A stretch of 64,000 bases of DNA, from positions 1,376,001 through 1,440,000 of the forward strand of contig OY764216.1 of assembly GCA_963668315.1 (NCBI GenBank), in the 5' to 3' direction. Below the pieces are notes generated by a model. That model made no database searches, had not been told where the DNA came from, and worked only from the letters and a program-made list of their open reading frames with translations. Position numbers and translations under genes: made by a program. Origin of the DNA: Spirochaetia bacterium (GTDB lineage Bacteria; Spirochaetota; Spirochaetia; DSM-2461). This document shows, in pieces, positions 25,508-41,584 of the stretch (positions are counted from its first letter, which is position 1; each line of letters opens with the position of its first letter).

Positions 25508-26559
25508 ATCTTCAGCGCTTCCTGTCGTTTGTAGTGGTCCTCAAGAACCAGCGCCGCCATGGCTTCCACCACAGGGACCATACGGGGACACAGACAGGGA
25601 TCGTGCCTTCCTCGGGTCACGATATCCCGTTCCTGCCCTTCCTTGTCTATCGTTTTCTGGGGCGCCTCGATGGAGGACGTCGGCTTTACCGCGATACGGA
25701 ACACAATCTCCTCTCCGGTGGAGATTCCCCCCAGGGTTCCTCCGGCATTGTTGGTCTGGAAACCGTCCTTGTCCATCCAGTCGTTATGTTCCGTTCCCAG
25801 CATATCCACGCAGCCGAAACCCGAACCGAACTCCACGCCCTTCACGCCGCCCAGGGAAAGAACCGCTTTCCCCAGATCGGCTTCCAGTTTATCGAAAACC
25901 GGTTCGCCCAGTCCGGGGGGAAGGCCGTTGATGCGGCACTCCACCATTCCTCCCGTACTGTTACCCTCTTCGGCCAGCTGAACGATTCGCTCGTACATCT
26001 TCGCCGCGGCTTCCCTGTCGGGACAGCGCATGGGATTCTTTTCTATCTGGTCCAGGTCGATTGTTTCGCAGCCGAAACCGGCGGCCCGCAGGGTATAGGC
26101 GGTAATGGTCACCCCCCGCTGTGAAAGGAGTTTTCTGGCTATGGCCCCGGCGGCCACCCGTCCGGCCGTCTCCCGGCCCGAGGCCCTTCCCGAACCCCGG
26201 TGATCCCGGATGGCGTATTTTTTCAGGTAGGTAAAATCCGCATGGCCCGGGCGGAACATATTCACAATGTCATCGTAGGCGCTGGGCTGCTGGTCCTTAT
26301 TGTGGAGGAGCATCATCAGAGGCGTCCCCGTCGTTTTCCCCTCGTAGACACCGCTCAGGATATGTACTTCGTCGGTTTCCTTGCGGGGGGTCGTAACGGC
26401 GGACTGCCCCGGTTTTCTCCGGTCCAGCTCTTTCTGTATATCCGCCTCGTTCAGCTCGAGCAGAGGAGGGACCCCGTCGACAATGACGCCGACGCCGCCT
26501 CCATGGGATTCTCCGAATGTGGTGATTCTGAATAACTGTCCGAAACTATTGCCTGCCAT
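25504..26559 (-). CDS. aroC: Chorismate synthase
   Basis: MAGNSFG..TTFGESHG, RPGHAD, GRASGRET, KPTSSI, GRHDPC; GAGGAGG RBS. Confidence 0.97.
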   Translation of the reverse strand: MAGNSFGQLFRITTFGESHGGGVGVIVDGVPPLLELNEADIQKELDRRKPGQSAVTTPRKETDEVHILSGVYEGKTTGTPLMMLLHNKDQQPSAYDDIVNMFRPGHADFTYLKKYAIRDHRGSGRASGRETAGRVAAGAIARKLLSQRGVTITAYTLRAAGFGCETIDLDQIEKNPMRCPDREAAAKMYERIVQLAEEGNSTGGMVECRINGLPPGLGEPVFDKLEADLGKAVLSLGGVKGVEFGSGFGCVDMLGTEHNDWMDKDGFQTNNAGGTLGGISTGEEIVFRIAVKPTSSIEAPQKTIDKEGQERDIVTRGRHDPCLCPRMVPVVEAMAALVLEDHYKRQEALKI

Positions 26560-26787
26560 GGGGGCCTCCTCTGGTCGCATCGGCTGGGCGGCAGCATCAT
26601 CTTCCGGCCTGCCTGCCGTCATTTTCCGTAGAAACAGGGTAGCCGGATGGGCTTTGATGGTCAAGGGCGAAAGGGAGAGGGGAGAAATATCCGTCAAAAA
26701 CATAGATGGGTCTACGCAGTTTTCCCGATAGGTATTATACTGGGGATAATCGCAGGATGTATTCCCGGGAAAAGAGAGGAGGAACCA

Positions 26788-27204
26788 TTGGGAGAAACGA
26801 TACGCTTCGGGGTATCCATGGACAGCGACCTGGTTGAACTTCTTGACAGACTGACCCTGGACCAGGGGCATGAAAACCGTTCTGAAACAATTCGGTCTCT
26901 GGTGAGGAATGAGCTGGTGGAGACCGGTTCTCAGGATCCCGACAGGGAAGTCATAGGCACGGTTACTCTTCTTTACCACTACGGAACCAGGCTGCCCCGG
27001 GTCCTTGTGAAGGATTATCCGTCGGTAAAAATTTCTGCCAATATCCAGCTTCACGAGGATCATGAAATCTGTGTGAAAGTCATGGTGGTAAAAGGGAAGG
27101 GGGGCGAGGTCCGCGACTGGGCTCGGAAGCTTCTTTCCGGAAAGAAGATCATCGGGGAACTTTCCATCAGCGCCACAGAGGAACTGTACAGGGAACTGTT
27201 GTAG
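26788..27204 (+). CDS. NikR-like ribbon-helix-helix metalloregulator
   Basis: RFGVSMDSDL..NRSETIRSLVR RHH; VIGTVTLLY..C..VMVVKG ACT-like domain; GGAGG RBS + TTG start. Confidence 0.85.
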   Translation: MGETIRFGVSMDSDLVELLDRLTLDQGHENRSETIRSLVRNELVETGSQDPDREVIGTVTLLYHYGTRLPRVLVKDYPSVKISANIQLHEDHEICVKVMVVKGKGGEVRDWARKLLSGKKIIGELSISATEELYRELL

Positions 27205-27227
27205 GGCATGTGACAAGAGCCACCGTA

Positions 27228-27292
27228 TTGACCTTAGAAATAAAAGGTTTTATTCTATTTTGATGTGACACGAAAAAATTAAAACGTGTCAC
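27228..27292 (+). promoter_or_regulatory. Sigma70 promoter plus 28-bp NikR-type operator
   Basis: TTGACC-17-TATTCT, then perfect inverted repeat GTGACACG-N12-CGTGTCAC (27265-27292). Confidence 0.8.
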
Positions 27293-27329
27293 CCTTTTTG
27301 ACAGGTCGATTATAACAGGAGACATCAGA

Positions 27330-28475
27330 TTGAATACGTATCATGACAGAAGGGCTTTCCGCCCGAGAGCTGCGGCTCTGATCTTAGGTTTTATGATCCT
27401 CATCAGTTCCCAGGGCCTTTTTTCCATGGCCCGGGAAGAGGCATTCGAGACAGACTCATCCTTCACTGTCACCGACATGAGGGGAAGGGAAATCACGGTT
27501 CCGGGAGAAATCAGTCGCGTCATAGCCCTGGATGCCGGTGCTCTGAGGCTGATCAGCTACCTCGACGCCACAGATAAGGTCATCGCCGTGGAAGATGAGG
27601 GTCACGGACGGGAAATCTCTGATTACGGATTTTTCTCCCTGGCAACCTACCGTATCGCCTTTCCCGAACTGCGTGAACTTCCCAGTATCGGCAATAAGGA
27701 GAACCATGAGGGAATCATTGCGGCAGCGCCTGATCTCATTATCACTTCCACCGTGGATCCGGGGCAGCTGGATCAGCTTCAGAACGTTCTGGGGATTCCC
27801 GTTTTTGCCGTTAATGTCGATGTGGAACTCTTTGATAGGGAACTCTTCAATTTTCAGCTGACAAAACTCGGACAGATTCTGGGACGGCAGGATAGGGCAA
27901 AGGAGCTAATCGACGGAATCGATGCTGTTCTTGCCGATCTGGAAGCCCGTGCCTCCCTAGCGTCCGTGGCGAAACGGGCTTATGCCGGAGGAATGATGTT
28001 CTACGGCCCCGCCGATATTCTCAGGACGACGGGAGATTATCTTCCCTTTGATTTCAGCGGCGCCGAAAATGTCATGCCCACCAACCCTGTGGGAAACCTT
28101 CAGCCCTATATGACATCCGTGGAGGACCTGATCGCGGCCGCTCCCGACTATGTGTTTATCGATGGGGCGAACATGAACCTTTCCCGCTCCGGGTTTGAAA
28201 CGAACCGCAAAGTGCTGGAAGAGCAGGTTCCCGCCTTTGAGAATCAGCAGGTCTACTCCACTTTCGTATACAAATATTACGGGACAAACTGGGAAAATCA
28301 GCTTATCAATGCCTTTTTTGTCGGAAAAGTGCTCTATCCCGATTTGTATGGCGATATTGTCGTCGAAGACAAGGCCGAGGAAATCTGGCAGCTCTTTTTC
28401 GGAAGATCCCTGACCTATGATCAGGTGGTTCAGGCTCAGAAGGGCGGACCTGAAAAGGTTGACTGGTTTAACTGA
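27330..28475 (+). CDS. ABC transporter substrate-binding protein (metal-chelate/cobalamin, class III)
   Basis: TVTDMRGREITVP..RVIAL, LPSIG, PDLII, PDYVF; AGGAG RBS + TTG. Confidence 0.88.
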   Translation: MNTYHDRRAFRPRAAALILGFMILISSQGLFSMAREEAFETDSSFTVTDMRGREITVPGEISRVIALDAGALRLISYLDATDKVIAVEDEGHGREISDYGFFSLATYRIAFPELRELPSIGNKENHEGIIAAAPDLIITSTVDPGQLDQLQNVLGIPVFAVNVDVELFDRELFNFQLTKLGQILGRQDRAKELIDGIDAVLADLEARASLASVAKRAYAGGMMFYGPADILRTTGDYLPFDFSGAENVMPTNPVGNLQPYMTSVEDLIAAAPDYVFIDGANMNLSRSGFETNRKVLEEQVPAFENQQVYSTFVYKYYGTNWENQLINAFFVGKVLYPDLYGDIVVEDKAEEIWQLFFGRSLTYDQVVQAQKGGPEKVDWFN

Positions 28476-28477
28476 TT

Positions 28478-29539
28478 ATGAATCATGGTGCTGTCGATCC
28501 TCTTTTCCATCTATACCGCTTAGAGAGAAGAAGCCGGGGAATATTCCTGGCCATAGCAGGGGGCGTTCTTCTGCTGCTGGTCCTTTTTTCCCTGTCGGCA
28601 GGCACCATAAGGATTCCTTTCAAGGATGTGCTCTCCTACCTTTTCAGGCTGGATGCCGCCGGACAGGGCCGTATCATATGGGACGTCAGGATGCCTCGGG
28701 TTCTGGCCGCACTCCTTGTCGGCGCGGGGCTGTCCCTGTCCGGAACTGTAATGCAGTCCGTACTGCGCAATCCCCTGGCCTCTCCCTATACCCTGGGACT
28801 CTCCAGCGCCGCCGCCTTCGGTGCATCCTTTGCCATCGTCTTTTTCGGCGCGGGAACGGGCACTTCCTCCACGATCATCATCAGCAGTTCCTTCACCGTG
28901 GCCGCTTCGGCTTTTCTCTTCTGCTCCCTGTCCACGCTGGCCATTCTCCTGCTTACCGTACTGACAAAGATATCCGCCGAAAGCATGGTCCTGGCCGGTA
29001 TTGCCATCGGGTCGCTCTTTTCCGCCGGCCTTACCCTTATGCAGTATCTGGCCGACAGCGTGCAGCTGGCCAGCATCGTCTCCTGGACGTTCGGGGATCT
29101 GGGCCGGGCCAACTGGCAATTCCTGGCCATAACTGCGGTAGTCCTGATTCCCGTCTGCCTTCTTTTCTACTATTTCCGCTGGGATTTCAATGCCCTGGAC
29201 ACAGGTGAGGACGCGGCCCGGGGGCTGGGCGTGAAGACGGGAGCCCTGCGCATCGGAGGAATGGCCGCCGCCTCTCTTATCTCGGCTGTGATCGTCTCCT
29301 TCTTCGGGACCATCGCATTCATCGGACTTCTGGGCCCCCATATCGCCCGAAGGATTCTGGGCGCCGATCACCGCTTCCTCCTGATCTCCTCCCCCCTCAT
29401 CGGAGCCCTGATACTTCTGGCCGCCGATACGGCCGCCCGGACGGTTCTTACCCCTATGGTCCTGCCCGTGGGAATTCTGACCTCCCTCTGCGGTGGCCCT
29501 CTGTTCATCTATCTTCTTGTCGCAAGGAGGAGGGGATGA
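28478..29539 (+). CDS. FecCD/BtuC family permease
   Basis: RMPRVL, LRNPLASPYTLG, G.IAFIGLLGPHIAR, LPVG. Confidence 0.93.
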   Translation: MNHGAVDPLFHLYRLERRSRGIFLAIAGGVLLLLVLFSLSAGTIRIPFKDVLSYLFRLDAAGQGRIIWDVRMPRVLAALLVGAGLSLSGTVMQSVLRNPLASPYTLGLSSAAAFGASFAIVFFGAGTGTSSTIIISSSFTVAASAFLFCSLSTLAILLLTVLTKISAESMVLAGIAIGSLFSAGLTLMQYLADSVQLASIVSWTFGDLGRANWQFLAITAVVLIPVCLLFYYFRWDFNALDTGEDAARGLGVKTGALRIGGMAAASLISAVIVSFFGTIAFIGLLGPHIARRILGADHRFLLISSPLIGALILLAADTAARTVLTPMVLPVGILTSLCGGPLFIYLLVARRRG

Positions 29540-30288
29540 TTCTTTCTGTTCAGGGACTGCAATTCCAGTATAAAAGTCATCCCGTCATCAAGGAGGCTTC
29601 CTTCTGTGTGAAGGAAGGGGAGATCCTTACCATTCTGGGGCCGAACGGCGCCGGAAAAACAACTCTCCTCAAGTGCCTGAACCGGATTCTGATTCCCCGG
29701 GGCGGATCGGTTCTTATAGACGGAACGGATATCCACTCCCTGAGGCCGGTCCAGATCGCCCGCAGAATAGGCTGGGTTCCCCAGCAGGGCGAAAAAACCC
29801 GTATGAAAGTTTACGATCTGATTCTTCTGGGAAGAAAACCCTATTTCCGCTGGGCTCCGGGGAAAAGGGATCACCTGCTGGTGGAAGAAGCCATCAAGCT
29901 GATGGGTATTGAATCTCTGGCCATGCGTTACGCCGATGAAATAAGCGGAGGGGAGTTTCAGCTGGTGCAGATTGTCAGGGCCATGGCTCAGGCGCCCCGG
30001 GTCATTCTTTTTGATGAACCGACCAGCAGCCTGGATATCAGCAACCAGCATCGTCTAATGTCCCGTATCAGTCCCCTCATTCACTCAAGCCCCATGTCGG
30101 CGGTAATGACCCTTCACGATATCAATCTGGCCCTGCGTTATTCCGATAAATTTCTCCTCCTCCGGGACGGTATCGTCTATGCGGCGGGGGGCCGGGAGAT
30201 TATCACTCCGCAAAATATCCTCAAGGTATACGACATGGATGTCCTGGTGGAAGAAGCCGGCGGATATCCCGTCGTCATTCCTCTCTGA
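29536..30288 (+). CDS. ABC transporter ATP-binding protein (FecE/BtuD-like)
   Basis: GPNGAGKT, ISGGE, LFDEPT, LHDINLA. Confidence 0.93.
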   Translation: MILSVQGLQFQYKSHPVIKEASFCVKEGEILTILGPNGAGKTTLLKCLNRILIPRGGSVLIDGTDIHSLRPVQIARRIGWVPQQGEKTRMKVYDLILLGRKPYFRWAPGKRDHLLVEEAIKLMGIESLAMRYADEISGGEFQLVQIVRAMAQAPRVILFDEPTSSLDISNQHRLMSRISPLIHSSPMSAVMTLHDINLALRYSDKFLLLRDGIVYAAGGREIITPQNILKVYDMDVLVEEAGGYPVVIPL

Positions 30289-30305
30289 CCGGTCGGATTT
30301 CTCCC

Positions 30306-30860
30306 ATGAGAGTTACCCGGGCCATCGAAGAACAGCGGCAGCTTTATCCCCTGTCGACCTTGGCTGATATCTATAAAAGCTTTTTTCAGGATGAGTTCGG
30401 CCCGGGACACCTTCTTGCCGATCGGCAGAGAGCCCTGGAATATTACAATGGGGAGCTCGCCGATATGAGAAGCCGGAGCCGTTATAAGATCGAACCCTGC
30501 GGAGCGGGAGAGCATTTCTGTCGTCTTCACTTGGATCTTGTTCTTGACGGATTGATCAGCCGGGAAGACTATTTTGAGGCATTCCTGGCCGGGGCGGAGG
30601 GATTTTCTCTTCCCGACGGGGAGGGTTGGAAAAACAAATGGCTGTCAATTCTCCGTTCTCCCGGGAATTGGCAGGGTACCCTTGATCATTTTGAGGAAGA
30701 TGCCCATGGAATCCTATCTCGACTGGACGGGGGCGAATACGCCATGAATCACAGCGGCCGCTACAGGCAGGCCTATGACCCTCATTACCGTATCTTTTCC
30801 ATCCGGCATGCCGATGCCTTGATGGCTTCCCTATCCCCTAAAATCCGTCCTTTCTCATAA
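30306..30860 (+). CDS. Hypothetical protein, last gene of the ABC operon
   Basis: DIYKSFFQDEFGPGH and HSGRYRQAYDPHYRI segments; 17 nt after the ATPase gene. Confidence 0.75.
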   Translation: MRVTRAIEEQRQLYPLSTLADIYKSFFQDEFGPGHLLADRQRALEYYNGELADMRSRSRYKIEPCGAGEHFCRLHLDLVLDGLISREDYFEAFLAGAEGFSLPDGEGWKNKWLSILRSPGNWQGTLDHFEEDAHGILSRLDGGEYAMNHSGRYRQAYDPHYRIFSIRHADALMASLSPKIRPFS

Positions 30861-30908
30861 AGAGCAATTGCACGCTTCTTCCATCCTCTCTCTTTCTTAA
30901 AAAAGAGA

Positions 30909-30937
30909 GTAACACTTTTCCTCCGCCTCACTGTTTA
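30909..30937 (+). promoter_or_regulatory. Putative ECF-sigma promoter
   Basis: GTAAC-N17-CTGTTTA (AAC -35 / GTT-type -10) upstream of the ECF operon. Confidence 0.4.
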
Positions 30938-30969
30938 AGAGTTATACCAACTTGACAAAGAGGTCGATA

Positions 30970-31602
30970 ATGAAAAAGATAACCATTGTTTTAGTTTTAG
31001 TTATGATTACCGCCAGCCTTTTCGCCCAGGTGAAATTCCGCATGAACGGAGCCTGCGACTGGCATGCAGAAGAGGAAAAATCAGAGATGGGCGGAATCCG
31101 TCTGGAACTTGTGGGGCAGGAACTCGGCTTCGGCGTTGAAGTCATGGGTAATTCCAGCTGCGAAGATGAGCCGGTGGAGGGGGAGACCTACTGGGGCGAA
31201 TGGCAGGGAGAAGTCTTTGTCAATTATCACTTTTTCGGGAATAATTCTTTCCTGGATCCCTATCTGCAGGCCGGATACGGCTGTGCTGGCAAGGACTACT
31301 GGACCGTAGATGAGGGTTCGCAGGAGTTGAATATCTCCCTTTATCCCTCCTTCTCCGCCGGAGTCAACATGGTTTTCAAGGGCGGTCTCATTCTGGGCAT
31401 TCGCAACAGCTATCGTCCGGATAACCGGTATGTGCCCGGTTCAGATCTGCCCGTTTATGATTTGTCAAAGAATCAGTTTACCCTTAATATCGGCCACCAG
31501 TTCGGCGGAAGGGATAAAAGAGAGAGAGCAAGAGATGAGCGTTACGGATGCTGGAAGTGGTGCTGGTGCGAAGACGGCGACTGTGACAGGGATGACGATT
31601 AG
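30970..31602 (+). CDS. Exported beta-barrel-like protein with Cys/Trp/Asp-rich C-terminal tail
   Basis: Signal peptide ..ASLFA; amphipathic strands (LDPYLQAGYG, FTLNIGHQF); tail GCWKWCWCEDGDCDRDDD. Confidence 0.7.
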   Translation: MKKITIVLVLVMITASLFAQVKFRMNGACDWHAEEEKSEMGGIRLELVGQELGFGVEVMGNSSCEDEPVEGETYWGEWQGEVFVNYHFFGNNSFLDPYLQAGYGCAGKDYWTVDEGSQELNISLYPSFSAGVNMVFKGGLILGIRNSYRPDNRYVPGSDLPVYDLSKNQFTLNIGHQFGGRDKRERARDERYGCWKWCWCEDGDCDRDDD

Positions 31603-31616
31603 TCAAGGAGGACGTT

Positions 31617-32108
31617 CTGCCCGTTGACGTAGAAGCATTATATACCAAGTACGGACCTATGGTCCTCAGAAGATGCCGGCAGATGCTGGGAAACGAGGAC
31701 CAGGCCCTGGACGCCATGCAGGATGTCTTTGTCAAAGTGATAAACAAGAAGGACAGCCTCAAGGCGACCTATCCGTCCAGTCTCCTCTATACCATGGCTA
31801 CCAATCACTGCCTGAATATTCTGAGCCGGGAGAAGAGAACCTCCTGCGATAACGAGATTCTTGAGATGATCGTGTCCTTGGACAGGGTGGAGGAGAAGGC
31901 CCTGGACCGAATGTTTCTGGACCAGCTTTTTTCCGGTCAGAAAGCGTCCACCCGGACCATAGCGGTTCTTCATTATATGGATGGACTGACCCTGGAAGAG
32001 ACATCCCAGCTGAGCGGACTTTCCGTCTCCGGGGTGAGGAAGCGGTTGAGGAAGCTGAGAGAAGCGGGATTGGAAATGGAAGGATATACGGCGGAGAGAA
32101 GCAAATGA
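31617..32108 (+). CDS. ECF RNA polymerase sigma factor
   Basis: Region 2 (LYTKYGPMVLRRC..ALDAMQDVF) and region 4 (GLTLEETSQLSGLSVSGVRKRL); probable CTG start 5 nt after AAGGAGG. Confidence 0.9.
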   Translation: MPVDVEALYTKYGPMVLRRCRQMLGNEDQALDAMQDVFVKVINKKDSLKATYPSSLLYTMATNHCLNILSREKRTSCDNEILEMIVSLDRVEEKALDRMFLDQLFSGQKASTRTIAVLHYMDGLTLEETSQLSGLSVSGVRKRLRKLREAGLEMEGYTAERSK

Positions 32109-32899
32109 AAGATAATAAAAAAATAATGACAGAACTGTTCCGCCTGGGGGAGCTGCCCGAAGGCTGGGAAGATAAAGTTGACAGAGAAACCATTGACGGT
32201 GATGTGAGCGAGCTTCTCTCTTCCGACCGTGATATTCTGGATAGGTACAGGCCTTCCCGGATGGCCGCCGAGATTGAGGAGAAGGCACGGAGCGCCCGGG
32301 CCGGCAGGAAACGGAATCGTGTCAGGACGGCGGTTGCCTATACGGCGGCGGCCGCGGCCATGCTGGTCATGGGGCTGATTCTTCCCGGAATCATGACCGA
32401 ATCTACCGAATTTGACCCTGCCGGAACGACCCGGATCAAAGGTCAGTCGGAAGCCGGACTTACCGTCTACCGCAATACGGGACTTTCCACGGAAGTTCTC
32501 GATGAGAACAGTACGGCCCGGGAAGGGGATCTCATTCAGCTGGGCTATTCCGTCTTTACCGAAATGCCCTACGGTATCATCCTTTCCATAGACGGCCGGG
32601 GAATTGTCACACGCCATCTGGCGCCGGAAGGCCAGATCTCCGAAAAACTTCTCCCCGGAGGAGAACATCTTCTGGATTTTGCCTACGAGCTTGATGATGC
32701 CCCACGGTTCGAAACATTCTATCTGCTTGTCTCCGACAGGCCCTTTCCCGTGGATCCTGTGATCGATCTTCTTTCCAGGGAAGCCCGGGGAGAGGGAAAT
32801 ATCATCGATATTCCGGAGATCATAGGAAAAAGCTCTCTCGATTCCCGCGGAATTGGAAAAATGGTTCAATTCGCGGTATCAATACCCAAAGAGGATTAG
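32105..32899 (+). CDS. Putative membrane anti-sigma factor
   Basis: ATGA-coupled to the ECF gene; ~75-aa cytoplasmic N-terminus, single TM, TRIKG, periplasmic beta domain (GDLIQLGY..ILSIDGRG..YELDDAP). Confidence 0.78.
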   Translation: MKDNKKIMTELFRLGELPEGWEDKVDRETIDGDVSELLSSDRDILDRYRPSRMAAEIEEKARSARAGRKRNRVRTAVAYTAAAAAMLVMGLILPGIMTESTEFDPAGTTRIKGQSEAGLTVYRNTGLSTEVLDENSTAREGDLIQLGYSVFTEMPYGIILSIDGRGIVTRHLAPEGQISEKLLPGGEHLLDFAYELDDAPRFETFYLLVSDRPFPVDPVIDLLSREARGEGNIIDIPEIIGKSSLDSRGIGKMVQFAVSIPKED

Positions 32900-32903
32900 T
32901 ACA

Positions 32904-34994
32904 GTGAAGAAAAATACTCTCTTTATGATATTTTTTACCCTATCCGTTCTTTTCAGTGCCCGATGGGGGAGCGCTCTGAATGCAGAAGCCATGGAAGTCC
33001 GCCGTTTCGGCCTGTTTATCGGAGCCAACAACGGAGGGGATGAGCGCCAGACTCTGCTTTATGCCGATGATGACGCCCGGGATATGATGCTGACCATGGA
33101 GCAGATAGGGGGCATCGATCCTTCGGACAGCCTCCTGCTTCTGAACCCCACCGCCGGGAAAATCCGGGAGGCCCTGAAAATCATCTCCCTTCAAATCGAA
33201 GATGTTAACCCCCTGGTCAGACGGACGGAAATCATGTTCTACTACTCGGGACACTCCAACGGTCAGGGGCTTCTTCTGGCCGATGAAGATCTCTCCTACA
33301 AGGATATCAGAGACTCCCTGGACACGACCGGCGCGGATGTGGTCATCGCCGTTCTCGATTCCTGCTCATCCGGCGCCTTTACCAGGGCCAAGGGCGGCGA
33401 GAGACGCTCCCCCTTCCTGATCGACGAATCGTCCAGCATGGAGGGACATGCCTTTCTCACTTCCAGTTCCGAATCTGAACTGTCCCAGGAATCGGATCTT
33501 ATCGAGGGATCTTTCTTTACCCATTACCTTATCTCCGGTCTGCGGGGAGCGGCTGACAATACGGGAGACGGGCGTGTTTCGCTTAATGAGATTTATGAGC
33601 ATACCTTCCGGGAAACCCTTTCTTCCACGGAATCCACCATCGGCGGCCCTCAGCATGCTACCTATGAGATTCAGCTGACCGGTACGGGCGATTTGGTTTT
33701 GACCGATCTGACGATTCCCACCTCTGCGCTTCTGATCTCCGGGGAACTGGCAGGGCGCTTTTCCGTACGCTCCGGAGACAAACTGATAGCGGAGTTTTCC
33801 AAATACCGGGAGGATACCTTTAAAATGGCCCTTCCCGCCGGGGAATATACCATTAATATGGCCGATGGGGACGATGTCCGTTATGCCGATATCGAACTGA
33901 GTCGCAACGGACAGTTCTTTCTTACCGAGAAGGATTTTTCCAGCCGGCGGCTTGTCTGGACCCGCTTCCGAGGGGAGAGGAACTCCGATGAGGAGGTGGA
34001 AATCCCCTTTACCCTTTCACTCTTTCCCGGCATAAATTATCCCACTCTTCCCGATAACTCCGTTGTCATGCTGCAGGCGGGATTGAGTGCCTATGCCCCC
34101 CGGTTTGAAGGGGTGCAGGCCAGCTATCTGTTCAATATCACCCAGGATGACAGTGAGGGAGTTCAGGTTTCCCAGAATTTCAATATTGCCCGAAGTAATT
34201 TTCAAGGCATTCAGGGAGCGGGTATATTCAACATAGCCGGGGGAAACCTCCAGGGAGTACAGGGCGCCGGACTTTTCAATATCGCCGGAGATGAGCTGAG
34301 CGGACTTCAGGCGGCGGGACTTTTTAATATGGCCGGGCGCCCCTCTTCGGGAGTACAGCTCTCCGGCCTATTCAATATAGCCGGAGAGCTGGAGGGTTTT
34401 CAGGCGGCGGGTTTGTTCAATTCGACCGATTATCTGGACGGTATGCAGATCTCCCTGGTAAACAAGGCGGGAACGGTCGACGGGTTTCAGCTCGGGCTGG
34501 TCAATATCGCCCGTGAAATGGACGGCTTGGCCGTGGGGCTTATCAATATTTCCCGGAACGGAATCGTCGATCTGGGTGCCTGGTATGACAGCGGGGACGG
34601 TAAAATGTATACCTTCTTTCAGTCGGGAAGTCCCTATTTCTACACGCTCTATTTCATCGGCAATGAATTTCCCGACCATTCGGAAAGGGAGACTGTCTGG
34701 GGGGCCCATGCCGGATGCCGCCTGGGACTGGGCCCCCTGGAGATCGATCTGGACGGAGGATTCAGAAGCGCCTGGCAGGATGTCATGGATTCGGGAGCCG
34801 ATACTCCCTATCTTCTTCCCTCCGGCCGGGCTGTGATCGCGTTCAAAGGTCTGGGACTCTTCTGCGGATTCAGTGCGGTCATGTCTTTCCCGGGAAGTTA
34901 TGAATCCACCCTCTACGACGGGGACAGCTTCGCTCTCTTCGGGAATGAGGATTACCATATCTATCCGGACTTTATCATCGGCTTAAGGATCTGA
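32904..34994 (+). CDS. Exported caspase-family (peptidase C14) protein with C-terminal surface repeats and barrel-like domain
   Basis: Signal peptide; RFGLFIGAN; YYSGH (His) and VLDSC (Cys) dyad; GSFFTHYLISGLRGAAD; C-terminus IIGLRI. Confidence 0.88.
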   Translation: MKKNTLFMIFFTLSVLFSARWGSALNAEAMEVRRFGLFIGANNGGDERQTLLYADDDARDMMLTMEQIGGIDPSDSLLLLNPTAGKIREALKIISLQIEDVNPLVRRTEIMFYYSGHSNGQGLLLADEDLSYKDIRDSLDTTGADVVIAVLDSCSSGAFTRAKGGERRSPFLIDESSSMEGHAFLTSSSESELSQESDLIEGSFFTHYLISGLRGAADNTGDGRVSLNEIYEHTFRETLSSTESTIGGPQHATYEIQLTGTGDLVLTDLTIPTSALLISGELAGRFSVRSGDKLIAEFSKYREDTFKMALPAGEYTINMADGDDVRYADIELSRNGQFFLTEKDFSSRRLVWTRFRGERNSDEEVEIPFTLSLFPGINYPTLPDNSVVMLQAGLSAYAPRFEGVQASYLFNITQDDSEGVQVSQNFNIARSNFQGIQGAGIFNIAGGNLQGVQGAGLFNIAGDELSGLQAAGLFNMAGRPSSGVQLSGLFNIAGELEGFQAAGLFNSTDYLDGMQISLVNKAGTVDGFQLGLVNIAREMDGLAVGLINISRNGIVDLGAWYDSGDGKMYTFFQSGSPYFYTLYFIGNEFPDHSERETVWGAHAGCRLGLGPLEIDLDGGFRSAWQDVMDSGADTPYLLPSGRAVIAFKGLGLFCGFSAVMSFPGSYESTLYDGDSFALFGNEDYHIYPDFIIGLRI
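34107..34560 (+). repeat. Ten tandem 14-16 aa GxQxxGxFNxA repeats (LA_2272-like beta-solenoid)
   Basis: QGIQGAGIFNIAGGNL / QGVQGAGLFNIAGDEL / SGLQAAGLFNMAGRPS etc. Confidence 0.85.
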
Positions 34995-35072
34995 TAAGGG
35001 TGATCTTCTCTTGGCGAAAGAGAGGAAAAAGGGTAAAATATCAGGAAAAGATTGCATGCAAAGGAGCTATCT

Positions 35073-35471
35073 ATGGGAAATTATCCCGATTTTACCTATG
35101 CCCATACGGGACTTAACGTCGATGACAGGGAAGCCTGCGAAAAATGGTATGTAGAGAATCTTAATCTGAAGATTGTCCGTTCCGTTCCCGGCAATATGAG
35201 TTTTCTTGCCGATCCTACGGGCCGGGTTGTCCTGGAGATCTACTCCAATAAAGCGGCTCCGGTTCTGGACTTTCCCGGTATTCATTTCCTGTCTCTTCAT
35301 CTTGCCTTTCTTGTGGATGACCCGGAAAAAAGAGCGTCGGAATTGATTAAGGCGGGGGCGACAATCGCCGAAGACTATAAAATCACCGATGTGGGGGACA
35401 GAATGATTATGCTTCAAGATCCCTTCGGTGTGGCTATTCAATTAATCAAGAGACAGGAACCCATGTTCTGA
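35073..35471 (+). CDS. VOC/glyoxalase family protein
   Basis: HTGLNV, LEIY, HLAFLVDD, DPFGVAIQL; AAGGAG RBS. Confidence 0.88.
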   Translation: MGNYPDFTYAHTGLNVDDREACEKWYVENLNLKIVRSVPGNMSFLADPTGRVVLEIYSNKAAPVLDFPGIHFLSLHLAFLVDDPEKRASELIKAGATIAEDYKITDVGDRMIMLQDPFGVAIQLIKRQEPMF

Positions 35472-35503
35472 TGAGTTCTTAAAGAGGCAGATGAACTTGC
35501 TTC

Positions 35504-35529
35504 AGGAGAATATTGCGGAATATTCTCCT
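35504..35529. terminator. Hairpin between convergent genes
   Basis: AGGAGAATATT-GCGG-AATATTCTCCT. Confidence 0.55.
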
Positions 35530-35821
35530 AATCCTTATTTTTCTTTTTGTTCCGTGACAGGGAGAGGCTTCCGAATCCTCCGAGAATACCCATATAAAAA
35601 CCAAGATCGTACCAGAAGCCCGTATTATGGACCTCGTAGATATTGAGATGCTCGCGGAATATACTGAATATCAGAGATATCGGGGCCACCCATCCGTGCC
35701 AGATTCCCCAGAGCATGTTGGCCGGAGCCTCTCCTGTTGCTTTTCCATCGCCGGGAAGGCAGGATGCCAGAAGAAACATCATGGATAGCATCAGGATGAT
35801 GTATTTTGTTTTCACTTTCAT
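35528..35821 (-). CDS. Small membrane lipoprotein, hypothetical
   Basis: Lipobox LAS-C; GIWHGW..YEVHNTGFWYDLGF. Confidence 0.8.
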   Translation of the reverse strand: MKVKTKYIILMLSMMFLLASCLPGDGKATGEAPANMLWGIWHGWVAPISLIFSIFREHLNIYEVHNTGFWYDLGFYMGILGGFGSLSLSRNKKKNKD

Positions 35822-36000
35822 ATCGATCTCCCTTTTTAACAGTATACTCCTTTAGAACAGTTCGGCAAGGAAAAACTGTCACAGTTCCCAGGAAGAACTT
35901 CTGCAACCGGGAGATTCCCCATAGCCTCCCTTTATCCGGACGTGCTTCGCTATGGAAAAAGTACGGGAAATATATAAAATTAAGGTATGAGGAGATGATC

Positions 36001-36285
36001 ATGAAAAAATATATAAAAAAGCCCCTGATATTTGCCGCCTTCCTGATGCTCTATTCCTGTGCGACAGTTACGGTTCCCGTAGCGGCCACATCCAACGATC
36101 TGGGACGGCTTGTGGGGCGATCGTCCGGTACGGTCTGGTTGGGTATTTTCGGAGAGGCCGATGCCAGTATTATGGAAGCGTGCCGCGACGGGGGAATCCG
36201 GGAGATCTCCACGGTGGACTTCAAAACGGAGCTTCTTTTTCTGGGCCTGGGAAAGCGCTATACCTGCATCGTGACGGGAGAGTAA
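36001..36285 (+). CDS. TRL-like family lipoprotein
   Basis: Lipobox LYS-C; DASI.EA..GGI..ISTVD..C.VTGE; GAGGAG RBS. Confidence 0.78.
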   Translation: MKKYIKKPLIFAAFLMLYSCATVTVPVAATSNDLGRLVGRSSGTVWLGIFGEADASIMEACRDGGIREISTVDFKTELLFLGLGKRYTCIVTGE

Positions 36286-36310
36286 AAAAAAGGGACGAAT
36301 ACTCGTCCCT
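36284..36310 (-). terminator. Rho-independent terminator (fab operon)
   Basis: AGGGACGA-ATAC-TCGTCCCT preceded by an A-run (U-tract on minus). Confidence 0.65.
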
Positions 36311-36408
36311 AAACAGTGCAATTCTTACAGAAGTTGTTAATTTTTTCCGGCAACGCCGAAAGGTGGTATATATTACTTTACCCTCCCGAGGGGAGGGGTA
36401 AGGCCCGG

Positions 36409-37581
36409 TTAAAGGGTATTCACGTCGGCGGAGTAATCCACCCCTTCCACTTCAAAACCGTGGAGTTCCATGTAATCCTTCTTGAAACCTTCCAGATCTC
36501 CCTTTTCTGCCAGGAGATCTTCATCCACCCTGTCCCAGAGGGAAGCGACGGCTTTCTGCACGTCGTCGGCCATTTCCCAGTCGTCCATGCGGACGAATCC
36601 CTGGCCGTCTTTTATGGTCCCTTCCGATCCGTAGATCTTATCGGACAGCATACGCTGCATCTGTTCGCGGCAGCCCTCGTGGGTTCCCTTTTCCTTCATG
36701 ATTTTGAAGAGCAGGGCTATGTAAACCGAGACACCGGGAATAACGGCGCTTGATCGTGTTACCAGAGCTTTGTTGACCGAGATAAAGGCTTCACCGGAGA
36801 GATCGTTCAGCTCTTTCTGAAGTTCGCTGGCCGTAGCTTCCAGGTGTAGCTTGGCCTGTCCGATTGTTCCTTCCCGGTAAATAGGGTAGGTCATGGGGGA
36901 ACCGATATAGGTATAGGCCACGGTCTTGACGCCATCGGCCAGAACGCCGGCTTCCTTCATCGTTTTGATCCAGAGAGCCCAGTCCTCGCCGCCCATCACC
37001 TTGACGGTGGCGTTGATTTCCTCTTCCGATGCCGGGTCCAGGGTCAGACTTTTCAGTTTTCCGCTCAGGTCCATGGCAAAAGAGGTATAGGGTTCTTTGA
37101 TGGTCTTAAGGACAGACCGGTACATCTCTCCCGTATCGGGATCGGTCCTGACAGGAGAGGCAAGGCTGTATACAACCATATCCACCTGTCCGTCCTCGAA
37201 GAACGTTTTGATCCTGTCGATGACGGTTTTTCTCGTATCATGGGAAAAGGCATCGGCGTTGATGCTTTCGGCTTTCAGACCATCAGCCTGAGCCGCCGCA
37301 TCAAAGGTTCTGTTATTGTAGAAACCGGGTGTTCCCGGTCTTTTGGCGCTGCCCTCTTTTTCAAAGGAAACGCCCAGAGTATCGGCTCCGCCGGAGAAAG
37401 CGGCGGAAATTCTGGTGGCCAGGCCGAATCCGGTGGAACAGCCCAGAACCAATACTCTTTTAGGCATGGAGACCTTAGGCTGAGCCTTGGCCCACTCGAT
37501 GTCTCTTTTTACGATGGCCTCGCATCCCACAGGGTGGGAGGTAAGGCAGACGTTGTTCATGATTTTAGGTTCAATTATCAT
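36409..37581 (-). CDS. fabV: Enoyl-ACP / trans-2-enoyl-CoA reductase FabV
   Basis: HPVGC, GCSTGFGL, YSLASP, VMGGEDW, YIG..Y..GTIG.AK. Confidence 0.93.
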   Translation of the reverse strand: MIIEPKIMNNVCLTSHPVGCEAIVKRDIEWAKAQPKVSMPKRVLVLGCSTGFGLATRISAAFSGGADTLGVSFEKEGSAKRPGTPGFYNNRTFDAAAQADGLKAESINADAFSHDTRKTVIDRIKTFFEDGQVDMVVYSLASPVRTDPDTGEMYRSVLKTIKEPYTSFAMDLSGKLKSLTLDPASEEEINATVKVMGGEDWALWIKTMKEAGVLADGVKTVAYTYIGSPMTYPIYREGTIGQAKLHLEATASELQKELNDLSGEAFISVNKALVTRSSAVIPGVSVYIALLFKIMKEKGTHEGCREQMQRMLSDKIYGSEGTIKDGQGFVRMDDWEMADDVQKAVASLWDRVDEDLLAEKGDLEGFKKDYMELHGFEVEGVDYSADVNTL

Positions 37582-38003
37582 TACGCTTCTCCTGCTAAGC
37601 ACATCCAGCTGGCCTGACAGGCCAGTTCGTCACCCACAAAGGCTTTGCCTTTCTGTTTGATCATCCGGCCGGAAACCATTTCGTTCTCGATTTCAAAACG
37701 GACTTCGTCGCCGGGAACAACCTGACGGCGGAACTTCGCCTTTTCAACGGTTGCCAGGAAGAAGAGGGCGCTCGCCGCAGCGGCTCCGCTCTTCTTCAGG
37801 CCGGCGCCGCCGACCTGTGCCATCGCTTCAATCAGCAGTACGCCCGGCACGACGGGATGACCGGGGAAATGTCCTTTGAAAAAGAAATCCGATTCGGTGT
37901 ACTTTCTATATCCAATTATGTTCTTTTCGTCACATTTTTCAATACGATCGACAAAAAGAAAGGGATCTCTGTGAGGGAGAAGCTGTTCAATTTCGTTACT
38001 CAT
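37581..38003 (-). CDS. fabZ: 3-hydroxyacyl-ACP dehydratase
   Basis: LPHRDPFLFVD, FKGHFP..PGVLLIEAMAQ. Confidence 0.95.
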   Translation of the reverse strand: MSNEIEQLLPHRDPFLFVDRIEKCDEKNIIGYRKYTESDFFFKGHFPGHPVVPGVLLIEAMAQVGGAGLKKSGAAAASALFFLATVEKAKFRRQVVPGDEVRFEIENEMVSGRMIKQKGKAFVGDELACQASWMCLAGEA

Positions 38004-38010
38004 AGTGTTC

Positions 38011-39252
38011 TTACCCCTTATACTTCTTAATTACGATGGAACCGTTGTGTCCGCCGAATCCCAGGTTGTCCGAAAGGGTCGCATTGACCTCCATTTCTAT
38101 TCCTTTGTTGGGAACATAATCCAGATCACATTTTTCGTCGGCTTCGAAGAGGTTCATTGTTCCGGGAACAAAACTGTCCTGGATGGCCTTGATACAGACA
38201 ATGGCCTCAACACCGCCGGTGGCACCCAGCATATGGCCGTGCATGGCTTTGGTGGAGCTTACCTTGACCTTTTTGGCATGATCGCCGAAGGCTTCCTTGA
38301 TGGCCAGGGTCTCGCAGGGGTCATTAATGGGGGTGGAGGTACCATGGGCGTTGATATAATCGATATCTTCCGGCTTGAGCCCGGCGTCTTCCACGGCAAT
38401 TTTCATACTGGCAGCGCCCCCCTTACCTTCGGGGTCGGGCGCGGTGAGATGACCGGCATCGCAGGTCATTCCGAAACCGGCGATTTCGGCGTAAATCGTG
38501 GCTCCCCTTTTCTTGGCATGTTCCAGTTCTTCAAGAACCAGAATGCCCGCGCCCTCGCCCATGACAAAACCGTCCCGGTCCTTGTCAAAGGGGCGGCTGG
38601 CTGTTTTGGGGTCGTCATTCCGGGTACTGAGGGCCAGGAGTTTGTTGAACGAACCCACCGCAAAGGGGGTAATCGTCGCTTCCGTTCCGCCGGAGACGAT
38701 GATGTCGGCCATGCCGGAGCGGATGGTGTTCATCGCGTAGCCGATGGCATCCGTGCCGGAGGCACAGGCCGTGGCCAGGGCAAAACAGGGGCCGTGCAGG
38801 CCGTATTTGATGGAAACGTTTGCCGGACCTTCGTTGCTGATCAGCTTCGGTATGGCCATGGGGGCGATACCTGCCTGGGGGCCTTTGGCTGCCAGGCCGC
38901 GGATATTTTCCTCGGTTACTTCGAATCCGCCGATTCCGCATCCCAGGATACAGCCGGCTCTGTTGTGATCGAAGTTATCCTCCGTAAGGCCGGCATCATT
39001 CATGGCTTCCGCAGTGGCGGCCACGGCAAACTGGGTGAATCGGGCCATCTTCCGGGCTTCTTTTCTGTCCATAAAATCGGAAGCGTTAAAGTCTTTGACT
39101 TCTGCGGCAATTTTGGTGGCGAATTCGGTCGTATCGAACTGAGTGATCAGATCGATACCGATCGTACCGGCTTTTATGTTTTTCCAGAATTCTTCTACGC
39201 TGTGTCCTATGGGATTGATGGTTCCCATTCCGGTTACTACTACTCTTCTCAT
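38011..39252 (-). CDS. fabF: Beta-ketoacyl-ACP synthase II
   Basis: TACASG, NAHGTST, GHMLGA, GFGGHN. Confidence 0.96.
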   Translation of the reverse strand: MRRVVVTGMGTINPIGHSVEEFWKNIKAGTIGIDLITQFDTTEFATKIAAEVKDFNASDFMDRKEARKMARFTQFAVAATAEAMNDAGLTEDNFDHNRAGCILGCGIGGFEVTEENIRGLAAKGPQAGIAPMAIPKLISNEGPANVSIKYGLHGPCFALATACASGTDAIGYAMNTIRSGMADIIVSGGTEATITPFAVGSFNKLLALSTRNDDPKTASRPFDKDRDGFVMGEGAGILVLEELEHAKKRGATIYAEIAGFGMTCDAGHLTAPDPEGKGGAASMKIAVEDAGLKPEDIDYINAHGTSTPINDPCETLAIKEAFGDHAKKVKVSSTKAMHGHMLGATGGVEAIVCIKAIQDSFVPGTMNLFEADEKCDLDYVPNKGIEMEVNATLSDNLGFGGHNGSIVIKKYKG

Positions 39253-39266
39253 TTTATCTTCTCCTC

Positions 39267-40004
39267 CTACATTACCATTCCGCCGTCAACGGTCAGAACC
39301 TGACCGGTAACGTAGCGAGCCATATCCGATGCCAGGAAAAGCACTGCATTGGCTATATCTTGCGGTTCACCCAGCTGATTCATGGGAATCTGTGCCTGAA
39401 TGGATTCTTTAATATCATCTTTAAGTTTTTCTGTCATATCGGTCTTGATAAAACCGGGGGCAATGGCGTTAACCCGAACGCCCCTTTTGGCCGTTTCCTT
39501 GGCCAGAGCCTTGGTAAAACCGATTAAGCCGGCTTTGCTGGCGGCGTAGTTCGTCTGTCCTGCGTTACCCATGAGGCCGATAACGGAAGCCATATTGATG
39601 ATGACGCCCGATCTCTGACGGATCATGAAACGGGAAGCTTCCCTGGCCACGATAAAGGCTCCGGTCAGGTTCACATCAAGAACCTGCTGCCACTGTTCGG
39701 TACTCATGCGGAAGACAAGTCCGTCTTTTTCAATGCCCGCGTTGTTGATGACTACATCCAGTCCGTCCTTGGTGACTTCTTCCAGAATCTTCACAACGCC
39801 CGCTTCATCGGTCACATTTCCCTGGTACCATTTAAGGGAGGTGCCTGCCGCTTTGGCTTTTTCCTCCATCTCGCTGTGGAAGGGGCTTTCCTTCGTGCTC
39901 AGATAGGAAACATGGGCACCCTGTTCGAGACAGGCCATGACAATTGCTTTCCCGATACCCCGGGAACCACCGGTTACAAATACTTTCTTATCCTTTAACA
40001 GCAT
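39267..40004 (-). CDS. fabG: 3-oxoacyl-ACP reductase
   Basis: TGGSRGIG, NNAG, YAASK, VDGGM. Confidence 0.95.
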   Translation of the reverse strand: MLLKDKKVFVTGGSRGIGKAIVMACLEQGAHVSYLSTKESPFHSEMEEKAKAAGTSLKWYQGNVTDEAGVVKILEEVTKDGLDVVINNAGIEKDGLVFRMSTEQWQQVLDVNLTGAFIVAREASRFMIRQRSGVIINMASVIGLMGNAGQTNYAASKAGLIGFTKALAKETAKRGVRVNAIAPGFIKTDMTEKLKDDIKESIQAQIPMNQLGEPQDIANAVLFLASDMARYVTGQVLTVDGGMVM

Positions 40005-40022
40005 GATTACCTCGCTTATATA

Positions 40023-41006
40023 TTACCAAATTAAATAGTTCCCGCCGTAGGTCAATCCGGCGCCGAACCCAACGGTCAGTATTTTCTGACCTTTCTTGAG
40101 AAGACCCCTTCTGTCCATATCGGAAAGGGCCAGGGGAATGGACGCTCCGGAAGTATTGGCGAATTCGTCCATATTCAGGTAGAACTTGTCAAGAGGGATC
40201 TTATCCCGCTTGGCCGCCGCCTCTATGATGCGTCTGTTAGCCTGATGGGGGACGATCCAGTCGATGTCATCTACGGACAAATTATTCCTTTCCATTAAAT
40301 CTTTCAATATGACCGTGTTGGCCCGAACGGCGAATTCATAAACCCGCCGGCCGTCCATCTGCAGAAAATGGTCTTTGCCCACGATTTCTCCCTCTATGAA
40401 GGGATTGGAGGTTCCCCCCCGGTTATGGCTCAGCGCATCGGAGCCCGAGCCTTCGGCCCTTAAGAGAGAGTTGATTACCCCCCGGGGTTCTCCTTCGCCG
40501 GCTTCGAGAACAACCGCTCCCGCTCCGTCTCCGAAGAGGATGCAGTTGTTTCTGTTGGTCCAGTCCAGGACACGGGAGAGCCTTTCCGTGCCGATAACCA
40601 GGATCTTATGGCAGGTCCCGTTATTTATAAGGCCCTTGCCCAGCTCCAGTCCGTAGACGAAGCCGGAGCAGGCGGCTTTGATATCCATGGCGCCGCAGCT
40701 GTTGTTTCCCAAAAGATCCTGTATCAGGCAGGCGGTGGAGGGCATTTCATGATAATCCGCCGTTATGGTGGAGACAAGGATCATATCAATGTCCTGCGCC
40801 GTAATGCCCCGCTTCTCCAGGGCTTCCTGGGCAGCCTTATATCCCATGTATGAGGTCGTTTCTGTGTCTGAGGAGATATGCCGATTTCCTATTCCCGTGT
40901 GGGAACGGATCCATTCATCACTGGTATCAAGGGTTTTCGCCAATTCATCATTAGAGACCCTTTTTTCCGGAACGTAATGTCCCAATGAACTGATATAAGC
41001 ATTCAT
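40023..41006 (-). CDS. fabH: Beta-ketoacyl-ACP synthase III
   Basis: AACSGF, PHQAN, NTSGASIP, GFGAGLTYG; start 41006 or 41015. Confidence 0.95.
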   Translation of the reverse strand: MNAYISSLGHYVPEKRVSNDELAKTLDTSDEWIRSHTGIGNRHISSDTETTSYMGYKAAQEALEKRGITAQDIDMILVSTITADYHEMPSTACLIQDLLGNNSCGAMDIKAACSGFVYGLELGKGLINNGTCHKILVIGTERLSRVLDWTNRNNCILFGDGAGAVVLEAGEGEPRGVINSLLRAEGSGSDALSHNRGGTSNPFIEGEIVGKDHFLQMDGRRVYEFAVRANTVILKDLMERNNLSVDDIDWIVPHQANRRIIEAAAKRDKIPLDKFYLNMDEFANTSGASIPLALSDMDRRGLLKKGQKILTVGFGAGLTYGGNYLIW

Positions 41007-41013
41007 GAATCTC

Positions 41014-41073
41014 ATTATTTACATTTTCTGCCATTTTGTCAATATTGACAGATTCCACTATTGGGGATATATT
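41014..41073. promoter_or_regulatory. Back-to-back divergent promoters for the fab and acc operons
   Basis: Palindrome TGTCAATATTGACA gives TTGACA on both strands; + strand TTGACA-17-TATATT. Confidence 0.65.
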
Positions 41074-41113
41074 AGAAAAAGCGATTGAATTTTGAAATAA
41101 AGGAGTATCTCCC

Positions 41114-41584
41114 GTGTCGAATGGTTTTGTAAAGGATAAGGAAGACCTGTTTGAATTAATGGAGAAATTCGAAAAATCTGATATGAGCGAACTGACTCTC
41201 AAATTTGACGATCAGCTCATTAAAATGAAAAAGGGGGGCGATCAGAATATTATGGCACCCCTGGCTCCCATGGCCCAGCAGTACGCCGCTGCACCTGCGG
41301 TATCCGCAAGTGCTCCGGCTTCCGATGCTCCGGCCGCCGTCGAGGGTGAAATTATCTCCGCCCCTCTGGTGGGAACCTTTTACCGTCAGCCCGCACCGGA
41401 TGCCCCTCCCTTCGTAGAAGCGGGGACCAAAGTTAAAGCCGGTGACACTCTTTGTATTCTGGAAGCCATGAAGATCATGAATGAGCTGGAAGCGGAGTTT
41501 GACTGTGAAATACTGGAAGTTCTGATTGATTCGGGGGCTCTCGCCGAATTCGGAACACCTCTTTACCGGGTAAAACGCTTATGA
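41114..41584 (+). CDS. accB: Acetyl-CoA carboxylase biotin carboxyl carrier protein
   Basis: SAPLVGTFY, EAMKIMNE, Ala/Pro linker. Confidence 0.95.
   Translation: MSNGFVKDKEDLFELMEKFEKSDMSELTLKFDDQLIKMKKGGDQNIMAPLAPMAQQYAAAPAVSASAPASDAPAAVEGEIISAPLVGTFYRQPAPDAPPFVEAGTKVKAGDTLCILEAMKIMNELEAEFDCEILEVLIDSGALAEFGTPLYRVKRL

Follow-up and report, generated by a model that had tools for sequence, protein, structure and literature searches.

The window analysed here, i.e., the whole stretch of 64,000 nucleotides at positions 1,376,001-1,440,000 of contig OY764216.1 (assembly GCA_963668315.1), comes from a Spirochaetia bacterium (DSM-2461) and holds, on its forward strand, a conserved operon of a sigma factor belonging to the extracytoplasmic function (ECF) type, a predicted single-pass anti-sigma and an exported caspase-fold protease of family C14. 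An earlier note on this DNA had pointed to a motif, T-R-x-[K/R]-G, found once in the anti-sigma and twice in the caspase, and proposed that it was a cleavage code by which the protease activates itself, leaves its anchor and clips the anti-sigma. The three peptides are present in the frames of their genes, TRIKG at 32429-32443 (site 1), TRAKG at 33381-33395 (site 2) and TRFRG at 33960-33974 (site 3), and the element that homologs share at these places is a shorter one, a basic residue followed by glycine. By our estimate the odds are slightly better than even that [K/R]-G is what the caspase recognises and that the K112/G113 bond of the anti-sigma is where it cuts, in the site-1 step that would release the ECF sigma factor.

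The operon and its proteins

The closest relatives of the locus are Spirochaetales. Its sigma factor gene (31617..32108) matches both the TIGR02937 sigma70-ECF and the Sigma70_r2 profiles above their cut-offs, and probably starts at the CTG at 31617, five bases past AAGGAGG (31605-31619); the first ATG is at 31659, and a start there would remove a conserved segment. The next gene (32105..32899), which overlaps the sigma stop codon, encodes the predicted anti-sigma of 264 residues, in which hydropathy and an AlphaFold model delineate cytoplasmic helices, a membrane helix at about residues 75-95, a linker modelled at low confidence (97-113) and then an immunoglobulin-like (Ig-like) domain. An ECF sigma gene followed by that of a single-pass membrane protein with a periplasmic domain is the arrangement of ECF/anti-sigma systems governed by regulated intramembrane proteolysis, and gene order, topology and motif together point to binding of the sigma factor by this protein. 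Its Ig-like part has fold matches up to Z 8.9 and is related to DUF4384, a domain matched at E<=0.01 in 21 of 70 homologs and not in the window's own protein; one homolog carries the label 'ActD-like protein'. The family is large, with 2,269 clusters (at 50% identity) matching the anti-sigma profile at E<=1e-30. Foldseek gave no match to the anti-sigma model at E<=0.001, and Csx30 and PCi-like chains were absent among the fold matches listed, which excludes nothing.

The third gene (32904..34994) encodes the caspase, a protein of 696 residues that are numbered here from its GTG start at 32904, with matches to NF047436 and to PF00656 (30.3 bits against a cut-off of 21.4). In 104 homologs, dereplicated to less than 60% identity, the H117 and C154 of the C14 dyad are each invariant (104/104), as are three acidic residues, D57, D152 and E196 (104/104 each). 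The caspase profile matched only metacaspases in the PDB, where the single sequence had no match, and the model superimposed on AtMC4 (Z 21.0, root-mean-square deviation 3.0, 205 residues aligned) and on MALT1 (Z 19.9, root-mean-square deviation 3.0, 194 aligned). In MALT1, Asp365, Asp462 and Glu500 are reported to set the specificity for Arg (PMC4357240), and D57, D152 and E196 appear to mirror them: D57 and D152 align with metacaspase Asp residues, D57 being the alpha-1 Asp in the profile alignment, and E196 is equated with Glu500 from its position only. The S1 pocket predicted from these residues, which lie on alpha-1, L4 and L5, is acidic and of the Arg/Lys type, and the protein is predicted to be an active protease. 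An orthocaspase in the narrow sense, i.e., the MaOC1 type without a p10-like subdomain (PMC7475262), was considered and rejected, the model spanning both p20 and p10 of AtMC4 (1-421) and the whole caspase domain of MALT1 (339-561). MaOC1 itself is reported to undergo autocatalytic activation after Arg219 (PMC7475262) and to favour basic clusters (PMC7935541).

In 173 of 175 homologs the caspase domain comes after a hydrophobic stretch at the N-terminus, and with signal peptides assessed by hydropathy alone, the periplasmic part of the anti-sigma and the caspase are both predicted to be extracytoplasmic, the caspase presumably on the periplasmic side. Beyond the caspase domain the model has an all-strand segment at about residues 271-345 (33714..33938), an Ig-like beta-sandwich with matches of Z 7.1-8.1, and past site 3 come LA_2272-type repeats within approximate limits of 34092..34559 (NF047436, above cut-off) that are missing in short homologs. 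The final segment (34560..34994) is predicted from its alternating strand pattern to be a beta-barrel that would anchor the caspase in the outer membrane. Past site 3 most tails run to 150-212 or to 270-560 residues, the former in most complete homologs, and those of the short homologs matched OMP_b-brl in 3 of 22 cases (best E 4e-5) and Opa60 at E 0.012; the window's type of tail failed to align with them. Elsewhere in the genome (C1:1,136,464-1,137,369, reverse strand) such repeats and a barrel-like tail stand alone, without a caspase. In one family caspase (L217, G391:C96) an internal stop separates the caspase core from the Ig-like domain, and both motifs are retained.

A basic residue and glycine at three sites

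Site 1 (T109-R-I-K112-G113), with its predicted cut at K112/G113, lies 17 residues past the membrane helix, and the predicted local distance difference test (pLDDT) score of the model is below 50 over residues 97-113. In the 120 best homologs K112 is kept in 119 and G113 in 115 (Ser in 5), with T109 in 68 and R110 in 61, and the K-G pair persists within a linker that otherwise cannot be aligned. With a profile built from just the Ig domain to place the site in 146 sequences, each representing a different cluster at 50% identity, all 146 had a [K/R][G/S] at most 16 residues upstream of that domain, versus 27 in an adjacent control segment, and P3 was Arg in 132, P1 Lys in 145 and P1' Gly in 145. 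Across genomic loci K-G was found in 175 of 177, the remainder being one R-G and one M-G (L207), the latter scored as a miss at the aligned place, with a chance R-G upstream disregarded. Since K-G is unchanged while its distance to the Ig domain ranges from 3 to 24 residues, site 1 behaves as a short linear motif. At site 1 (D/E in 78/120) and site 3 (E in 89/119) the position five residues ahead of the basic one is frequently acidic in homologs, though not in the window's own proteins (32423-32425 and 33954-33956).

Site 2 (T160-R-A-K163-G164) is in the L4 loop after the catalytic Cys, K163 being nine residues past C154, and pLDDT is below 50 for residues 161-177. K163 and G164 are each present in all 104 homologs, R161 in 84 and T160 in 80, which makes K163, rather than R161, the better candidate for P1. 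Site 3 (T353-R-F-R356-G357) falls between the Ig-like domain and the repeat and barrel tail, and pLDDT is again below 50 (residues 354-356). Residue 356 is R in 58 or K in 45 of the 104 homologs (103 in all), G357 is kept in 102, and the flanks vary; among genomic loci the site was found in 186 of 188 and at constant spacing from the Ig-like domain in 175, with one count (L209) probably coming from a frameshifted assembly.

The five-residue motif occurs 42 times in the 2,580,496 residues of this genome's long six-frame segments, for a chance expectation of about 0.016 in the 960 residues at issue. That figure overstates the case, as the pattern was defined after the three peptides had been seen, and conservation is the fairer test. 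By that test the full T-R-x-[K/R]-G is found at 65/177 loci for site 1, 111/190 for site 2 and 18/188 for site 3, and at all three sites together in 9 of 166 triads; left out of these counts were the window's own locus (L035), the distant L031 and the N-terminal-only matches L095-L102. The code of the earlier note thus survives in shortened form: its basic residue and glycine are near-invariant at all three sites, and its T-R part is variable. From the alignments, the shared element is [K/R]-G, and only sites 1 and 2 extend it to x-R-x-K-G. All synonymous codons are in use at these pairs, so that it is the protein on which selection acts. A switch between Lys and Arg common to anti-sigma and caspase was for the most part not seen among the loci, site 3 having R (111) or K (75) and site 1 staying K; a joint change is hinted at only by L195 and by a distant subfamily (L227:1432-3524; L231), whose anti-sigmas read R-S or R-G and whose caspase loops read R-G, possibly a joint shift from Lys to Arg.

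The two proteins largely occur together. In the phylum Spirochaetota, the full-length anti-sigma and the caspase were found in an identical set of 59 genomes out of 401, six further genomes having weak N-terminal anti-sigma matches only, and in 151 Myxococcota genomes the anti-sigma was found in 101, the caspase in 99 and both in 97. Among the 30 best loci of other DUF4384 proteins, only two show [K/R]-G in the corresponding segment, from which it follows that the DUF4384 fold has no need of the motif, and among seven unrelated anti-sigmas one had an R-G past the helix. A close paralog of the sigma factor (L095, 1780-3965) is paired with an anti-sigma that has the same cytoplasmic domain but a TPR periplasmic domain, and the motif is missing from it; the neighbour there is a TPR gene instead of an adjacent caspase, as if the same sigma module had been given another input. 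At three other loci (L108:1944-2885, L116 and L122) the sigma and anti-sigma genes are followed by a short gene for a barrel-like tail only, and the K-G of the anti-sigma is kept. Some myxobacteria have up to 14 caspase paralogs, and tails differ between subfamilies, which suggests that sensing has diversified. In the present genome, outside the window (C1:5,429,000-5,486,000), at least eight caspase-like open reading frames (ORFs) are clustered, several with signal-peptide-like starts, together with three DUF4384 domains, and in one exported DUF4384-caspase fusion the DUF4384 is immediately preceded by T-A-R-G.

The proposed cuts and the alternatives

How might these parts work together? In the scheme that we propose, the caspase would hang in the periplasm from its outer-membrane barrel and, on a signal, cut its own linker at R356/G357, a step to which we give an even chance, so that a 36-kDa part, caspase and Ig-like domain, would be free to travel to the inner membrane. 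Such a release is attractive because the 150-212 residues that most complete homologs have past site 3 would otherwise tether the protease to the outer membrane, a long way from site 1. Self-cleavage of the L4 loop at K163/G164 is possible, at somewhat less than even odds. If the caspase cuts the anti-sigma, it would likely do so after cutting itself, and it is reasonably probable that it removes the 17-kDa periplasmic domain of the anti-sigma, a cut at K112/G113 giving fragments of 12.6 and 16.7 kDa. RseP would then cut the exposed membrane helix and free the sigma factor (the genome encodes one M50 site-2 protease, a PF02163 match at E 1.4e-49), and the sigma factor would transcribe its own operon from GT[AG]ACA-N17-TGTT in positive feedback. 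The complete series of three cuts in that order is doubtful. Equally tentative is the notion of widespread signalling across the envelope with the caspase as receptor, in which an interchangeable barrel would sense a ligand, the caspase would release itself at [R/K]-G, pass through the periplasm and clip the anti-sigma at K-G, and the autoregulated sigma factor would respond. We observed the operon, the His-Cys dyad and invariant acidic residues of the protease, the near-invariant [K/R]-G pairs and a conserved DNA motif upstream; the cutting itself is our proposal from these. Of the self-activation, self-release and clipping that the earlier note had read into its motif, the supporting features, i.e., the intact His-Cys dyad, the acidic S1 pocket, the low-confidence loops and the conserved [K/R]-G, held up, for a code shorter than the one it had described.

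Several observations weigh against cleavage at a common code. The 146 representatives had been chosen by a profile that contained the motif, and the loci that were counted are related and include duplicates, i.e., kin that are not independent. P1 differs between the sites in most triads (K, K and R in 104 of 164), and beyond [K/R]-G no single code fits all three alignments, since the P3 Arg is missing at site 3 (R354 in only 15/104). Pairs of a basic residue and glycine are also kept in folded parts, e.g., R214 (92/104) and G215 (104/104) of the caspase and R165-G166 of the anti-sigma (119/120), and for that reason conservation alone is no proof; its weight comes from its combination with disordered and variable linkers. 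Site 2 adjoins invariant active-site residues, so that its conservation may be structural, and the L4 loop of MALT1 is described as staying intact, ordered by substrate rather than cut (PMC4357240), which makes it less compelling that site 2 is necessarily cut for activation. Two caspases (L042 and L092) have no site 3, and the window's type of tail had no direct barrel match by profile. Among 110 Myxococcota loci there are nine without a caspase domain next door, and eight of these nine anti-sigmas retain K-G, all eight genomes encoding paralogous caspases of the family; in the ninth (L207), Met replaces Lys, and no family caspase was found in the genome, a single case in a possibly incomplete assembly. 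A prediction of the complex between caspase residues 31-362 and the periplasmic part of the anti-sigma scored 0.01, which gives no verdict either way.

The uncut L4 loop of MALT1 also speaks for the alternative that the motifs are pseudo-substrates or bait: the caspase's own L4 loop or linker would shut the protease, the K-G of the anti-sigma would inhibit or dock it, and the sigma factor would be freed by loss of contact or by another route, any cutting being slow or incidental. In AtMC4, Lys225 is reported to occupy the S1 pocket as a self-inhibitor and to be cut there upon activation (bioRxiv 2020.03.09.983940), and PCi is reported both to inhibit PCaspase and to be cut (bioRxiv 2023.06.23.546230). 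The constant distance of site 3 from the Ig-like domain (175/186) is also what binding in cis would give. However, a scissile bond whose P1' is small would predict just such an invariant Gly behind the basic residue as is seen at all three sites, and site 1, 17 residues outside the membrane, is where anti-sigma site-1 cuts fall (RseA and the DdvA linker). We consider this pseudo-substrate reading unlikely.

Less probable still is that a separate upstream protease specific for Lys and Arg cuts all three sites and that the family caspase has other substrates. PCaspase, after all, is described as being activated by another protease, SAVED-CHAT (bioRxiv 2023.06.23.546230), and the orphan anti-sigmas retain their K-G. 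Those orphan genomes, however, hold family caspases elsewhere, and the S1 pocket of the caspase already suits these sites. No third protease accompanies the triad in the loci that were read, where scans targeted the three genes only and the neighbours seen vary. Very improbable is the view that the three peptides are unrelated and their conservation structural or due to chance, with no shared meaning: the lineage-specific identity over five residues and the basic-glycine pairs of folded regions would fit it, but the linkers that hold sites 1 and 3 are hypervariable and predicted to be disordered, with the sites themselves invariant, and the DUF4384 fold does without the motif. As for a transpeptidase that would cut after Lys or Arg and link the acyl end to a new Gly at an N-terminus, in a domain swap between anti-sigma and anchor or in the tagging of envelope proteins, its chances are slim at best, for although P1' Gly is invariant and caspase-fold ligases are among the fold matches (GPI transamidase, Z 19.5; OaAEP1, Z 19.0), the scores of hydrolytic enzymes, namely metacaspase, caspases and MALT1, equal or exceed these (Z 19.9-21.0), and small P1' residues are usual in hydrolytic caspases too.

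Related systems, the promoter and the surroundings

The proposed cut of the anti-sigma by its operon's caspase has a counterpart in the RseA/DegS/RseP system of E. coli, whose regulated intramembrane proteolysis is summarised in PMC10028731 and PMC11506125. Both have an ECF sigma, a single-pass anti-sigma with a periplasmic domain, a near-membrane site-1 cut (here a candidate), RseP and a promoter of the autoregulatory type; the candidate site-1 protease here differs in being a C14 caspase dedicated to the operon, predicted to be anchored in the outer membrane, that carries the motif twice. DdvS/DdvA of Myxococcus xanthus is similar in the juxtamembrane linker of its transmembrane anti-sigma and in a proposed caspase-fold cut before that of RseP (PMC11506125). 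As that source describes it, however, the CHAT domain is within DdvA itself and the regulon is an island of cyclic-oligonucleotide-based antiphage signalling (CBASS) and CRISPR genes, whereas here the C14 protease is a protein of its own and an Ig-like domain of 145 residues forms part of the anti-sigma. A DdvA-type anti-sigma was rejected as a classification for the locus, the 264-residue protein having that Ig-like domain and no fused TPR-CHAT, with the protease in its own gene.

Two CRISPR-associated systems also invite comparison. In Craspase, the caspase-like Csx29 cuts the anti-sigma Csx30 once, near its C-terminal domain, and Csx30 holds RpoE/CASP-sigma, some Csx30 C-terminal domains being DUF4384 (bioRxiv 2022.08.17.504292, PMC10028731). 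Craspase is described there as cytoplasmic, triggered by RNA, of the CHAT family and cutting after Met427, whereas the present caspase is exported, has no link to CRISPR and is predicted to cut Lys-Gly. The PCaspase/PCc-sigma/PCi module of a Haliangium type III-B CRISPR system (bioRxiv 2023.06.23.546230) is by its description alike in having a C14 caspase beside a sigma factor and a small partner, but differs in its activation by SAVED-CHAT, in broad specificity, in causing cell death and in cutting the sigma factor itself. A CRISPR-associated caspase module was ruled out for the present locus by the signal-peptide-like N-terminus and by the transport and metabolic neighbours, and cell-surface signalling of the FecA/FecR/FecI type by the third gene being a caspase, not a TonB-dependent receptor; profile scans of that gene gave no match to a TonB-receptor family, its product being made up of caspase, repeats and a short tail. 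No cas genes or nucleotide sensor were recognised among the translated ORFs at 26000-42000, which, from their translations, we take to be transport and metabolic genes. On this analysis the system belongs to none of RseA, DdvA, Csx29/Csx30 or PCaspase, and it would work like RseA-type proteolysis and like the autoproteolysis proposed for DdvA.

The gene arrangement, if not its meaning, had probably been seen before. Asplund-Samuelsson et al. (2012) noted sigma-70 genes in four metacaspase operons of M. xanthus, and such operons also in Anaeromyxobacter, Haliangium, Sorangium, Ralstonia and Fibrobacter (PMC3501461), which by their description probably correspond to the present arrangement; the list of operons there mentions neither an anti-sigma nor a cleavage motif, and neither where the proteins reside nor how they might work. 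Anti-sigmas of group ECF25 are similar in being single-pass, in the +1 position and often with DUF4384, with members in Deltaproteobacteria and Spirochaetes, and the available supplement text on that group mentions no caspase (PMC7826278). A description of this anti-sigma, its motif or its mechanism was not found in the literature searched, whose coverage was partial, so that an earlier report is possible. Most bacterial caspase-fold proteases are without a known substrate, and here a candidate substrate, candidate scissile bonds, predicted fragment sizes and a candidate promoter can all be named. If the proposal is true, an exported caspase as a dedicated site-1 protease would be a new route of input to ECF sigma factors, and thousands of bacterial caspases would gain a defined substrate and a role in non-lethal signalling rather than in death.

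The promoter that would close the loop is a predicted ECF-type element, GTAACA-N17-TGTT, at 30909..30935 on the forward strand, ahead of the operon. Of 183 homologous sigma genes, 59, from both phyla, have GT[AG]ACA-N17-TGTT upstream, 57 of these at 28-65 nucleotides before the start, and the element is likely the sigma factor's own promoter, of the autoregulatory type. Its GT[AG]ACA could be aligned in all ten loci that start with a gene for an outer-membrane-protein (OMP)-like product, preceding that gene as it does in the window. A wider regulon did not rise above chance: 13 strict matches were found genome-wide versus about 20 expected, and matrix scores above 16 were no commoner in the genome than in shuffled DNA. 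One further match, at 35856..35882 on the reverse strand, is 32 nucleotides ahead of a lipoprotein-like ORF of 97 residues (35528-35821, reverse strand) that is convergent with the operon, has no Pfam match and has homologs in loci L001 and L033; its score of 16.5 is matched by shuffled DNA, and it serves as a lead only. The OMP-like gene of the window (30970..31602, forward strand) encodes an exported protein whose OMP_b-brl match (E 0.047) is below cut-off; it was found in 10 of 31 homologous loci, being the operon's first gene in close relatives only, and the C-terminal tail of its product is short and rich in Cys, Trp and Asp (31540-31600).

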